A stretch of 64,000 nt of DNA from sequence record NC_104726.1. One strand, 5' to 3'. Source of the DNA: a phage. Below the pieces are notes generated by a model. That model searched no databases, was not told the DNA's origin, and saw only the letters and a program-made list of their open reading frames with translations. The stretch's first letter is position 1. The number at the start of each line of letters is the position of its first letter. Shown here piece after piece: positions 30 to 56,626 of the stretch. The translations under genes and the position numbers were made by a program.

Positions 30-608
30 TCAGCGTTCATAGTAAATCTTATTTAACATTACCTCATCCTTTGCAGAAAGGATATCAAGATATGCATCAC
101 CAAATCTTCCTGCAACAACCTCTGCATGATACATCACTTCGTTAACATCGTCAAGAGTGATAACCGGATGACCATATCTTTCTGAATATTGTCTCAGGGT
201 GCGATGTAACGAGTCGTCATCATATGCAGACTTTTTAATATCACAAACACGACGAATAGCCTTGATGTCGAAAAAACCTGTGCGATACCACCCAAGAAAA
301 AGGTTTCGTGCAGTGTCAACATCTACATTGATACCATCAAGAACCTTATCTACAAGATAGCTGTCATCCTTTGGACCAGCGTCCTTAGTGCGAATGTAGT
401 TGCCATCTTTTCCAGGCGACATCTCCTTCTCATCCCCAACCTGCATGCCATCATTTGGCGGTGTTAGCCACTTATCCGGATGCTTACGATCACGAGCGTT
501 AGAATGATTACGCTGGAAACCGGGCTTCCACTTGAAAGTTTTCTCCATCTGTTCTTCATTCTGATAACGTTTTGCAATCTTTTCACGGTCATCTTTGCGT
601 GAACCCAT
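30..608 (-). CDS. hypothetical protein (192 aa)
   Basis: Long ORF on minus strand; no recognisable motif. Confidence 0.5.
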   Translation of the reverse strand: MGSRKDDREKIAKRYQNEEQMEKTFKWKPGFQRNHSNARDRKHPDKWLTPPNDGMQVGDEKEMSPGKDGNYIRTKDAGPKDDSYLVDKVLDGINVDVDTARNLFLGWYRTGFFDIKAIRRVCDIKKSAYDDDSLHRTLRQYSERYGHPVITLDDVNEVMYHAEVVAGRFGDAYLDILSAKDEVMLNKIYYER

Positions 609-1111
609 AGCTGCCTCCTCTTCAAGTTATAGAAAAACTCACTGTATCGCTTTGTAACGAGCTTTTCTATCAAACTGGTGCGATTGCATTACCTGGTATA
701 GTTTATATAGTTGTGGAGCGATTTAGGGGCCTTCTTGTCAGTTTCCACACATAAACTTCATCCAAGCTCGCGCGGGAGACTCTCAACCGACTCCTTACGG
801 CGCTGGCAAGCTTTCGTCGGTGGTCCACATCAGTGCTCGGCCTTTGGCCTGCGCTATCGCTTCGCTCCCACACATGTTAACAGACCTGCATGTATGAACT
901 TCTGTTATTGTGTGCACCAAGGAGGCCCGGCATCTCGCCCCTCGTAGGCGAGTGCCAATGAAGGGCCGACACTGCCCATAGTAAGTAATAAATTTAAAAC
1001 ATGGTACTTAGGATCTAGTATATTCTACATAAGTTAAGTATATGTACTTAGTACCATAAGTACTAGATCTTTTATTTTTTATTATTTAGTTATTTTAGTT
1101 ATATTCTTTAT

Positions 1112-1220
1112 GTGTCCGTATCACGGACAGTTAGTGTCCGTATTACGGGCAGATGTGTCCGCGTGACGGACAGTAGTGTCCGTATCACGGACAGTTAATA
1201 GTATCCGTTCCATGGCGAAC
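1112..1220. repeat. tandem array of four to five 22-bp-period palindromic units (GTGTCCGT-N3-ACGGACAG); operator-like
   Basis: Read directly: gtgtccgtatcacggacag repeated at about 1112, 1134, 1156, 1177, with a degenerate copy near 1201; each unit is an inverted repeat. Confidence 0.6.
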
Positions 1221-1268
1221 ATAAAACATACGAATCCTTATAGTACAGATATTTAAGTTTTTACTGGT

Positions 1269-1619
1269 CTAACCAGTTGTTGACATCCGAATAACTTCTT
1301 CTGGTGGCAAAACTTTGGAAAATGTGCATCTTTTACCTCTCCCTTGTGTGGATGTTTCAACCACTCCTGCACATTCTAAAGTTTTAACGCACGCTGCTGC
1401 TTTTGTTTTCTTTATCCCAACATCTGCTGCAATTTTCCTTGTGCTTGGTGTGAAGCGTGAATTTCCTCCAAGCTTATACCAGTTGTGCAGGTAGCAGTAT
1501 ACGATCTTGTCATACAAGTCAAGAACAACAACCTCCCCAGTTGTGTCATTCAAAACTTTTGACATAGATAGTATTTCAAGGGGGACTTTAAGATATAGCA
1601 GCTTATCCCCATCTTTCAT
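1269..1619 (-). CDS. hypothetical protein (116 aa), possibly DNA-binding
   Basis: ORF adjacent to the palindromic repeat array; basic C-terminus; no firm motif. Confidence 0.45.
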   Translation of the reverse strand: MKDGDKLLYLKVPLEILSMSKVLNDTTGEVVVLDLYDKIVYCYLHNWYKLGGNSRFTPSTRKIAADVGIKKTKAAACVKTLECAGVVETSTQGRGKRCTFSKVLPPEEVIRMSTTG

Positions 1620-12910: not shown

Positions 12911-13070
12911 CTGGAAAGGTGTTGTTGCAGATCGCTGCGTTACTGAGCCTAATTTATGGTTTGGCTCTACAGAATATCATAAAGAAGAGCAGTGGTTGAT
13001 GCATGCCTTCGATGTAGACAAGGGCGAATATCGTGACTTCGCTTTAAAAGACATTCTTCAGTTTTACTAA
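12897..13070 (+). CDS. hypothetical small protein
   Basis: Internal ATG (MKYRNWKG) chosen over the longer track ORF that overlaps Endo VII; weak SD. Confidence 0.35.
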   Translation: MKYRNWKGVVADRCVTEPNLWFGSTEYHKEEQWLMHAFDVDKGEYRDFALKDILQFY

Positions 13071-13076
13071 GGAATC

Positions 13077-14066
13077 TTGACGATGATGACAAAGTTAACT
13101 CTTGAGCAAATTTTAACACTAAAGCAACAGGGATACACTAATAGACAAATTGCTCGTGAATTTTTAGGCCGTGAGTCACGTGAGAGCTGGATCCGACTAC
13201 AGCTTAAACGTGCACAAGAGAATATGTCAGAGATTGTAGGAGAAGCAACGGAGCGCTTCCTTGAAGAGCACAAAGGCGCTAAAGTTTGGGTGTATGATAC
13301 AGAGACATCCCCAACAAACGGCTGGTTCTTTGGGCACTATAAGACCAACATTCAAACCTGTGGTATTGAAGTTATGCCTTATATGCTAACTTTCGCAGGT
13401 AAGTGGTTAGACAGTCCTAGTGTGGTTGACTGCGCTCTTCCCGATTACAAAATGTGGGATGAGGATATTCACAATGACCTCGAATTGATTCAGGACTTGT
13501 GGTATTATCTGGATAAATGTGATGTCGCAGTAGCCCACAATTCAGGTTTTGACTGTGGGTGGGCAAACCAACGATTTGCATTTCACGGGTTGCCTCCAAC
13601 AAGCCCATACAAAGAGGTTGACACCCTTAAAATGATCAAGAAGGCATTCCGTTTGAATGCAAACACTTTGGAGTATGCATGCAAATACTTCCAACTTGCC
13701 AGACAGAAACTGATTGACCACACATTTGAAATGTGGATCAAGTGTGTTCATGGTGATCTTGAGGCGTTTAAACAGATGCGGGAGTACAATGTTGGTGATA
13801 TCCTATCTCTGGAAGGCCTGTATTTGCTGGCACGCCCGTTTGCTAAGCAGCACCCCAACATGTCATTGTACTACCAGGATGAGGAGCCAAAAGTTCGTTG
13901 CCCACGCTGCGGTGGAGAACACCTTCACGAGGAAGAAGCTTTGGCGTATACTCAACTGAGTGCATTTAAAACATATCGCTGCGAAGGTTGTGGATCTGTT
14001 GTTCGTGACCGTAACAACATCCGTACCAGAGAAGAAATGAAAAACACCCTGATTCAGATAATCTAA
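13077..14066 (+). CDS. DnaQ-like (DEDD) 3'-5' exonuclease with C-terminal zinc ribbon
   Basis: Exo I VWVYDTET, Exo II VAHNSGFDCGW, Exo III YNVGD; CPRCGG...CEGCG. Confidence 0.7.
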   Translation: MTMMTKLTLEQILTLKQQGYTNRQIAREFLGRESRESWIRLQLKRAQENMSEIVGEATERFLEEHKGAKVWVYDTETSPTNGWFFGHYKTNIQTCGIEVMPYMLTFAGKWLDSPSVVDCALPDYKMWDEDIHNDLELIQDLWYYLDKCDVAVAHNSGFDCGWANQRFAFHGLPPTSPYKEVDTLKMIKKAFRLNANTLEYACKYFQLARQKLIDHTFEMWIKCVHGDLEAFKQMREYNVGDILSLEGLYLLARPFAKQHPNMSLYYQDEEPKVRCPRCGGEHLHEEEALAYTQLSAFKTYRCEGCGSVVRDRNNIRTREEMKNTLIQII

Positions 14067-55609: not shown

Positions 55610-55869
55610 TTTTGTACCTCCTCTTCAATTGTTACCTATCCTATAGCATAGGCCCACCAGGTTTGCAAGCCTTCATTATCTCCTACCTGGTCAGTTAGGC
55701 CCTGCCAGGCTGGCCCCGCCAGGTTGCAGCGGTCAGCGCATCAGGTTAGAATTTTTTTTTTGAAAAGTGTTGACAGCGGCCCCGCCAGGTGGCAAAATAT
55801 ACCTATCGAAAGGACGGCAGGCACCGGTGACGGGGGAGACAACCACCGGGGATGGGCGCTGCATGAAAT

Positions 55870-56320: not shown

Positions 56321-56626
56321 AGCTGCACCGCAACTTCAAGATAGTGGTTAGATTGTTACCATAGAAGGTCAAGGGTAAGTGGAGGAAGTTCTAGTAGAGG
56401 GAGGTTAGCATGTGTGGGAAATCTATAATGGTGGCCTGGAATATGGTGCAAACGATAGGATGAGTTATTCAGCTTGTCGCGCCTACTCTGAAAAATCCAT
56501 TTTAGTTTTCGATCCATTTTCTGATTTTCTAAGAATTTTAAAATATCTGGCCCGGTGAAATATCAAAAGGAGGAAATCCATTTTAGAAATCCCCCTTATA
56601 CTTGATATGCCAGGAATTTTCAAGTA

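Follow-up and report, generated by a model that had tools for sequence, protein, structure and literature searches.

The phages of the genus Vequintavirus (rV5-like phages of E. coli) are widely used for therapy and typing, and neither an origin of replication nor a packaging (pac) site has been defined for them. A spacer of 660 bases in one such phage raises the question of what its non-coding DNA may do. The spacer spans positions 609-1268 of the 64,000-nucleotide stretch of sequence record NC_104726.1 that was analysed here (the window), between two minus-strand genes located at 30-608 and 1269-1619. Positions 1-2400 of the window are 98-100% identical to about 117 Vequintavirus genomes, the closest match being Escherichia phage JLBYU08. 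A preliminary description of the window had taken the spacer to be non-coding, and it is so in about 118 related genomes. We find that it is a composite of two separable neighbouring elements. One is part of a cassette (976-1619) made of an AT-rich tract, a palindrome array and the adjoining gene for a 116-residue protein. The other is a GC-rich island (~712-975), a structured nucleic-acid element as judged from sequence comparison, which recurs in small E. coli plasmids. The locus offers a concrete candidate origin, with its sites, its protein and its unwinding tract.

The palindromes and the adjacent gene for a probable winged-helix protein

The preliminary description had counted four to five palindromes at about 1112-1220 and taken them for the sites of a dimeric DNA-binding protein, as an operator or a partition-like array. 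Four 19-bp palindromes of the form GTGTCCGT-N3-ACGGACAG are indeed present, at 1112-1130, 1134-1152, 1155-1173 and 1176-1194, with no strand assigned. Their starts (1112, 1134, 1155, 1176) are spaced by 22, 21 and 21 nt (TRF score 110-126). The fifth (1198-1217, likewise without strand) is a degenerate half-palindrome that varies among relatives and is probably not functional. When up to two mismatches were allowed, GTCCGTNNNACGGAC matched five times in the 64 kb as compared to 0.86 expected, and four of these five matches fell in the array. In the assembled 137-kb genome, no copy outside the array keeps both half-sites intact. Relatives carry four, three or two units; the differences are exact deletions of 21 or 43 nt and the unit sequence is kept. 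The array lies 3′ of the gene for the 116-residue protein, its sites beginning 72 bp past the stop codon, and is a set of candidate iterons for that protein.

The gene itself (1269-1619, minus strand; rV5 ORF 79, for open reading frame) is preceded by a sigma-70 promoter at 1654-1683 on the same strand (TTGACA-18-TATTTT with TG), listed as P76 in the rV5 record. Its product matches phrog_12838, 'replication initiation protein', at 5e-80, this family consisting of the protein and its close relatives. Weaker PHROG matches are to the N-terminal winged helix of initiator phrogs 8102, 428 and 270. The Pfam domains HTH_36 (PF13730; 24.5 bits for a cut-off of 25) and DUF6945 (PF22182; 27.4 for a cut-off of 28) fall just below threshold, and the representatives of the protein's 90% cluster carry a precomputed PF13730 match. 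Among PDB entries, the neighbour is an uncharacterised 120-residue protein (4ro3, 3e-6); matches to CodY and to the N-terminal domains of RepA_N proteins are not significant (E ~0.8 for RepA_N). The AlphaFold model was too poor (pLDDT 45) and was not used for a fold search. As judged from these family matches, the protein is probably a winged helix. GenBank records name it either 'replication initiation protein' (several) or 'transcriptional regulator' (most). The family is confined to the genus Vequintavirus, with only five close relatives in a set of 5.8 billion proteins.

A 137-kb metagenomic vequintavirus-like genome (contig L015) is a diverged relative with the same flanking genes. It is 83% identical to the window in the gene at 30-608 and 89-91% identical in modules A, B′ and G of the island, described below. 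Across the block made up of the AT-rich tract, the palindromes and the protein gene, it is only 34-46% identical. In place of the 116-residue protein, this genome encodes a 143-residue winged-helix paralogue (28% identity), and four to five different palindromes, ATCTGATRCA-N4-TGYATCAGAT, stand directly after the paralogue's gene. Because identity drops just there, the AT-rich tract, the sites and the protein form, on this comparison, one exchangeable cassette (976-1619). Protein and palindromes change together, as expected of a DNA-binding protein and its cognate sites. Uniqueness to the locus, copy variation by whole units and the joint exchange with the gene support the idea of a site for a dimeric DNA-binding protein, and we consider it likely that the array is bound by the 116-residue protein.

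The more specific proposals fared less well. A scan of 560-1650 on either strand for sigma-70-type promoters, phage-specific types lying outside its cover, found none anywhere in this range, and the rV5 promoter list (Table S4) has none at this position. With no sigma-70 promoter over the sites, and with the sites placed 3′ of the gene whose product they would bind, a classical operator is unlikely. A partition site is not supported either, since a virulent headful packager has no evident need of partition.

A candidate replication origin

The AT-rich tract (976-1111, no strand assigned), which the preliminary description had overlooked, has a GC content of 20%, and its 120-nt window is the poorest in GC of all those in the 137-kb genome. 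Positions ~982-1030 and 1040-1088 form a long inverted repeat, at the end of which the plus strand has a T-run. Folded together with the last module of the island (915-1100), the tract gives a z-score of -5.4. It also carries two GATC sites, located in 13-mer-like elements at 1012-1024 and 1066-1078; the second one (GATCTTTTATTTT) fits the oriC 13-mer consensus. We read the tract as a candidate DNA-unwinding element and as a candidate plus-strand terminator.

Because tandem dyad repeats of about 19 bp, the AT-richest tract of the genome and an initiator-type winged-helix gene adjoin one another, the palindromes, the tract and the gene may quite possibly be a lambda-like but minimal iteron-type origin-initiator cassette, a reading that we adopt tentatively. 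Dimers of the winged-helix protein would bind the tandem 19-bp palindromes, two to four in number and one every two helical turns. The resulting nucleoprotein complex would destabilise the adjacent inverted repeat, and the opened repeat would allow entry of the phage helicase-primase. The genome-wide cumulative GC-skew minimum lies 1-2 kb from the site. In the rV5 paper, a skew change was reported at 66.7 kb, about 1.4 kb from the site, and was attributed to transcription direction, the origin being left undefined. Literature searches for an rV5 origin, rV5 non-coding RNA and rV5 satellites found nothing.

Several observations weigh against an origin. In this phage the GC-skew turns coincide with changes in transcription direction, so that skew is weak evidence. 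The 116-residue protein is a DNA-binding domain only, without the C-terminal domain that recruits a helicase loader, and the sites are outside its gene, unlike those of lambda O/ori. DnaA boxes (TTATCCACA) are not enriched, with two 2-mismatch matches in 700 nt as compared to 3.7 expected from the window-wide rate. Finally, both binding and initiation at the site are deduced from sequence features.

The same features could instead serve transcriptional control. The 116-residue protein would be a repressor or roadblock that coats the palindromes and stops early leftward transcription, coming from the promoter at 1654-1683 and from further upstream, before it enters the gene at 30-608, the tRNA cluster and the late genes; alternatively, it would block a convergent plus-strand transcript of the island. 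Tandem palindromes with cooperative spacing are classic operator arrays, and no minus-strand intrinsic terminator follows the gene, either in our scan or in rV5 Table S4. The name given to the protein in most records points the same way, as do its best Pfam and PDB neighbours, which include CodY, LexA, TrmB and MarR-type winged helices. However, no promoter overlaps the sites, and the strongest family assignment is to initiator-type winged helices. Moreover, the sites, the gene and the AT-richest inverted repeat of the genome move together as one cassette, and a simple roadblock needs no such repeat. We regard transcriptional control as unlikely and retain the origin-initiator cassette as our working interpretation.

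The GC island as a structured element

The GC-rich segment that had been placed at about 730-955 was confirmed with slightly wider limits, ~712-975. The GC content of 100-nt windows reaches 56-58% at 751-950, as compared to about 40% in the flanks, and the 120-nt windows at 761-771 are the GC-richest of the whole window.

The island is a chain of hairpin modules joined by linkers of C and A only. Its core, module A (759-834, plus strand, 76 nt), is a hairpin present in a single copy per genome. Stem P1 pairs 778-781 with 822-825 and stem P2 pairs 786-791 with 816-821; the apical loop (792-815, 24 nt) is invariant, and a CCACA linker (824-828, plus strand) follows the hairpin. Module B′ (831-875, plus strand) consists of a hairpin at ~833-856 and the C/A linker CCCACACA (867-874), and is 91-100% identical in all relatives, L015 included. 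Module H (876-920, plus strand) is a variable hairpin; rV5 lacks 18 nt of it, and in L015 compensating changes have rebuilt it. Module G (921-975, plus strand), a GC-rich nested hairpin (924-967), is common to the phage and one plasmid, NZ_CP020521.1. Two motifs stand upstream of the core: GCGATTTAGGGGCC (718-731, plus strand), which occurs once in the phage genome, and a 20-nt motif CAGGTAATGCAATCGCACCA (676-695, minus strand), also unique in it.

In module A, four of the ten pairs are changed on both sides and 97% of the cells are paired, as compared to 13-58% in slid registers. None of 500 shuffles reaches the observed covariation value, which rests on few independent lineages (phage type versus plasmid type). 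Three of the changed pairs belong to the six-base-pair stem P2, which reads ACCGAC/GTCGGT in phages versus GCTGCC/GGCAGC in plasmids; the fourth is A-U, G-U or G-C among phages. A covariance model of module A finds exactly one match per phage or plasmid genome, at 92-103 bits. Module G shows two compensated pairs, G-C to U-A, between phage and plasmid. In L015, the most diverged relative, the island is better conserved than the neighbouring protein gene. Together with the compensated stems, this conservation argues that the island is under selection as a folded nucleic acid and not as a coding remnant. A point against this is that the minimum free energy (MFE) fold of the whole island has a z-score of only -1.3 to -1.6. 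Overall, the comparisons indicate that the GC island is a genuine, previously undescribed structured nucleic-acid element.

The element belongs to no described RNA family that we could find. A search of the 64-kb window against Rfam 15 at the gathering threshold gave zero matches. At E ≤10, positions 560-1320 gave chance matches only, and the plasmid and L015 versions gave none. The matches to rli43 (21.9 bits as compared to 100) and mir-154 were rejected as chance, as they fall in AT-rich hairpins. The suggestion that the island could be a structured RNA holds as far as structure is concerned, given the compensated stems; its RNA nature and its strand are proposals, taken up below.

Plasmids that share the island

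When complete E. coli genomes were searched with blastn, window positions ~763-830 and 915-973 matched non-coding DNA of circular plasmids of about 13 kb, with 84-87% identity. This family of circular E. coli 'plasmids' of ~13.2-13.9 kb is represented by NZ_CP020521.1 (13,689 bp; L006) and by L005, L007, L008, L009, L037 and L049. Further copies of the element were found in metagenomes. Scans with 18-mers returned 87 metagenome and 59 genome loci; all genome matches and most metagenome matches were due to chance, the true ones being six metagenome contigs only (four phage, two plasmid-like). In IMG/VR, one match of six was true. Searches of other Vequintavirinae genera and other phages, by blastn for the spacer element and by tblastn with both flanking proteins, led to the genus Vequintavirus alone.

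In the plasmids, the element is again built of hairpin units and C/A-only linkers, (C)CCACACA, whole units being present or absent between similar plasmids. Module A is the only unit found in every phage and every plasmid. The plasmid modules C, C′ and E have a common three-hairpin architecture with different stem sequences. The chain ends in a canonical plus-strand intrinsic terminator, GCCTAAAGAG-N9-CTCTTTAGGC-TTTCATTT. Upstream of module A, at 49-50 nt, the plasmids carry ATTTAGGGG, the same distance as for GCGATTTAGGGGCC in the phage, and they have a second, distal copy of it. The 20-nt motif of the phage is present too (CAGGTAATGCAATYGCACCA, with one mismatch), about 100 nt upstream of module A and on the opposite strand as compared to the phage. 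Both motifs look like DNA-level protein sites. They were also considered as general promoter elements and rejected, each being unique in the genome.

The order of elements is conserved as well. In six of the seven plasmid versions, the module chain is followed by the terminator, a C-rich stretch, 13-mer-like repeats of the GATCTATT type and iterons. This order and its orientation are those of the phage, where the island is followed by the AT-rich tract and the palindromes. The Rep-like winged-helix proteins of the plasmids match HTH_36 (31.7 bits) as well as O-like and DnaD-like phrogs, and in sequence they covary with their iterons.

The plasmids also encode virion proteins. These include a major head protein, a tape-measure protein, and neck and baseplate-like proteins with 25-50% identity to those of the rV5 group. 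The tape-measure protein (706 residues) is 25% identical to that of the phage, a 270-residue protein is 50% identical to JLBYU08_196 and a neck/tail-completion protein is 45% identical to JLBYU08_204. Neither terminase nor portal, sheath or tube is encoded, so that these plasmids cannot be autonomous phages. From their gene content they look like putative satellites of rV5-group phages. No paper describing the 13-kb plasmids was found in the literature. The conserved, covarying island, with no Rfam family of its own, ties virulent phages to small E. coli plasmids that are apparently an unrecognised satellite family.

Three further observations concern these plasmids. NZ_CP043822.1 (39,610 bp; L005) has three copies of the module A region and a size equal to 3 x 13.2 kb, so that it probably represents the 13-kb element in trimeric or concatemeric form. 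Only NZ_CP020521.1 has, at 12985-13125 and thus separating its module chain from its iterons, three repeats spaced by about 40 nt with the palindromic core ATATCA-N3-TGATAT, a candidate plasmid partition or operator site. In JLBYU08, about 2 kb at 34.4-36.6 kb (window ~40-42 kb) are AT-rich and almost free of ORFs, at the genome's GC-skew maximum. CCCACAC/GTGTGGG motifs occur several times in this stretch, and 25 nt of it (TGATATTTGAGAATTGTTA...) match non-coding DNA of the 13-kb plasmid; it may be a second region that phage and plasmids share. As a genome-wide regulatory motif, CCCACAC/GTGTGGG was rejected: its 27 copies are scattered and have no consistent context.

Strand and role of the island

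Since phage and plasmids keep the same order of chain, AT-rich tract and iterons or palindromes, we infer a link between the island and origin function. The stretch ~712-975 would give a non-coding transcript, most likely of the plus strand, made of autonomous hairpin modules and single-stranded C/A linkers. This transcript would run toward the AT-rich tract and end at the tract's T-run. It would act at or with the origin, by transcriptional activation or priming or by recruitment of a helper factor.

Three kinds of evidence favour a plus-strand RNA. The chain leads into an intrinsic terminator in the plasmids and L015, and into the AT hairpin with its T-run in the window. Modules A and B′ contain invariant U-G pairs, and A-to-G changes yield G-U pairs on the plus strand. 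On that strand the C/A linkers would remain single-stranded. Other observations weigh against this proposal or against its link to the origin. About four of the 95 module pairs are G-U, so that both strands, or single-stranded DNA, could fold; A-C mismatches of L015 on the plus strand are G-U on the minus strand. Neither a sigma-70 scan of the spacer nor inspection by eye found a convincing promoter for the island. L015 swaps the origin cassette and keeps the island, showing that the two parts are not coupled in specificity. Comparison of the MFE values of the two strands was not decisive. A promoter and terminator scan of the spacer gave nothing beyond the promoter of the 116-residue protein's own gene, and the rV5 late-promoter motif TGGTAAAATA has no good match in the spacer. 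TGGTATAGT at 694-702, picked by eye as an extended -10 element, was rejected as it is not conserved in Aya or L015.

The sharing of module A between phages and plasmids allows a broader, more doubtful proposal, that module A and its chain are an undescribed RNA or hairpin-DNA signal by which plasmid satellites plug into rV5-like helpers. The helper would use the element at its own origin or at its packaging start, and the plasmids would have copied it to obtain replication and/or packaging from the helper. If true, no plasmid satellite system would have been described before for a large virulent E. coli myovirus, and the handle used for hijacking would be a structured nucleic-acid module. A functional link between phage and plasmids would mean a new helper-satellite system together with the cis or trans element on which it depends.

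Two narrower roles for the island, each improbable in our view, can be set beside these. In the first, the island, especially module A with the repeated CCCACACA motifs, would be the pac site itself. Vequintaviruses are reported to be circularly permuted, headful (pac) packagers whose pac site is unmapped. The position of the island, about 4 kb upstream of the gene for the large terminase, is on the late-operon side. The plasmids encode capsid and tail proteins and no terminase; a satellite that lacks a terminase has to bring along the packaging signal of its helper, and the only nucleotide sequence that all plasmids have in common with the phage is module A plus the motifs upstream of it. Known satellites, P4 among them, use the packaging site of their helper. 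However, recognition of a double-stranded site explains neither the compensated stems, nor the autonomous hairpin modules, nor the terminator at the end of the chain. In addition, no small terminase gene is known next to the island, and the number and identity of the modules vary freely among plasmids.

In the second, the island RNA would be a trans-acting decoy or regulatory RNA unrelated to replication. By means of its C/A linkers and 24-nt loop it would titrate or direct some factor of the host or the phage (Rho, which binds C-rich RNA, is an example), and the plasmids would make a competing version. Such a design, modular hairpins with repeated single-stranded motifs in 3 to 7 copies, recalls sponge RNAs such as CsrB. 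The loop is invariant while its closing stem covaries, and the island does not depend on which origin cassette adjoins it. Against this, no partner has been identified and no promoter mapped, G-U pairs are few, and the place beside the AT-rich tract and iterons is kept in phage and plasmids alike.

A coding origin of the island, as a small protein gene (rV5 ORF 78, 56 residues, minus strand 703-873) or a decayed coding fragment, the latter named in the preliminary description as grounds for refutation, can be dismissed almost entirely: although ORF 78 and JLBYU08_229 are annotated in some records and an open minus-strand frame crosses module A in phage and plasmids, all six frames are open across the GC-rich core, the starts, ends and lengths of the ORFs differ between relatives so that none is conserved, plasmid module indels come in units of 49, 50, 55 and 98 nt that are not multiples of three, the stem substitutions compensate pairwise, no Pfam or PHROG family applies, and L015 conserves the island above the neighbouring gene. 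A structured element with a possible link to the origin is the interpretation that we keep.

Other features of the locus and the genome

On the minus strand, the genes are ordered as follows: a polynucleotide kinase-like ATPase, a phosphoesterase, the gene for the 116-residue protein, the spacer, a gene for a 192-residue protein (30-608, minus strand; phrog_12226, function unknown), small ORFs, seven tRNAs, spanins, the large terminase and structural genes. Transcription diverges about 1.4 kb to the right of the spacer. In the curated records of relatives, the spacer is annotated solely as 'repeat_region' or as small hypothetical ORFs. A scan of the window for tRNA and transfer-messenger RNA genes found none. 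Just upstream of the ribosome-binding site of the 192-residue protein's gene, on the minus strand, a 12-bp inverted repeat (ATAGAAAAACTC / GAGCTTTTCTAT) at 629-670 is kept in all relatives, L015 included. It may be a leader hairpin or attenuator of this gene.

A second GC-rich non-coding stretch is located at ~55,640-55,865 of the window. In it, GGCCCCGCCAGGT motifs recur around a promoter-like site of the TTGACA type and a T10 run; Rfam gave no match. JLBYU08 has a shorter version of this stretch and lacks about 3 kb of the sequence that the window has upstream of it. In the early region, a dispersed repeat exists as two near-identical copies of more than 120 nt ending in TTTCCCACACATGCTAACCTC, about 3 kb apart in JLBYU08 (47,852 and 50,831); one copy is found at ~56,401-56,421 of the window.

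Some database records appear to be misnamed. Eighteen records called 'Campylobacter phage' (MG0656xx) are 91-100% identical to the E. coli rV5-like locus, and are probably mislabelled coliphages or coliphages contaminating Campylobacter phage stocks. The PLSDB record CP057073.1, a 'plasmid' of 137,565 bp, appears to be a vequintavirus genome.

Comparison with known systems

Lambdoid operators OR and OL, bound by CI and Cro, resemble the array in their tandem palindromes of 17-19 bp, spaced by about two turns and bound cooperatively by dimers. They differ from it in that the array has no overlapping promoter and stands 3′ of the gene for its regulator, in a phage that is virulent.

For the island, functional parallels would be ColE1 RNA II and the R-loop primers of T4 oriF and oriG, in which a structured non-coding transcript is directed at the unwinding element of an origin. 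There is no homology with these, nor R-loop evidence here, and the plasmids have a terminator between the transcript and the AT-rich tract. The sponge RNAs CsrB and RsmZ are likewise chains of hairpins with a short repeated single-stranded motif in variable copy number. In the island, the motif is CCCACACA in the linkers and not GGA in the loops; it has no known partner, and Rfam gave no match.

The phage-plasmid pair recalls P2 and its satellite P4, where a small plasmid-capable element shares short cis non-coding sequences with its helper and has a capsid-related function. Here, the helper would be a virulent 137-kb myovirus, and genes for major capsid, tape-measure and neck/tail proteins are present on the plasmids themselves. 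What phage and plasmids share is a hairpin module and not a cos site, and the satellite lifestyle is a proposal.

Iteron plasmid origins (RepA_N; the 13-kb plasmids) also combine a winged-helix initiator, which in the cassette is a predicted one, with repeats of its cognate site and with an AT-rich tract where 13-mer-like repeats contain GATC; Rep and iterons covary. Plasmid iterons are direct repeats bound by monomers, whereas the phage sites are palindromes. The cassette comes nearest to lambda, whose iterons are bound by dimers of the N-terminal winged-helix domain of the O protein. The 116-residue protein has no sequence similarity to lambda O, no C-terminal helicase-loader domain and no P-like gene next to it; its sites lie 72 bp past the stop codon and are not intragenic, and its function is a prediction. 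The likeness is one of arrangement: both have about four tandem 19-bp dyad sites, an AT-rich unwinding tract (a candidate one in the phage) immediately beside them and then a palindrome. On the coding strand of the initiator, both follow the order DNA-binding domain, iterons, AT-rich tract, and in both the initiator and its sites are exchanged together between relatives.

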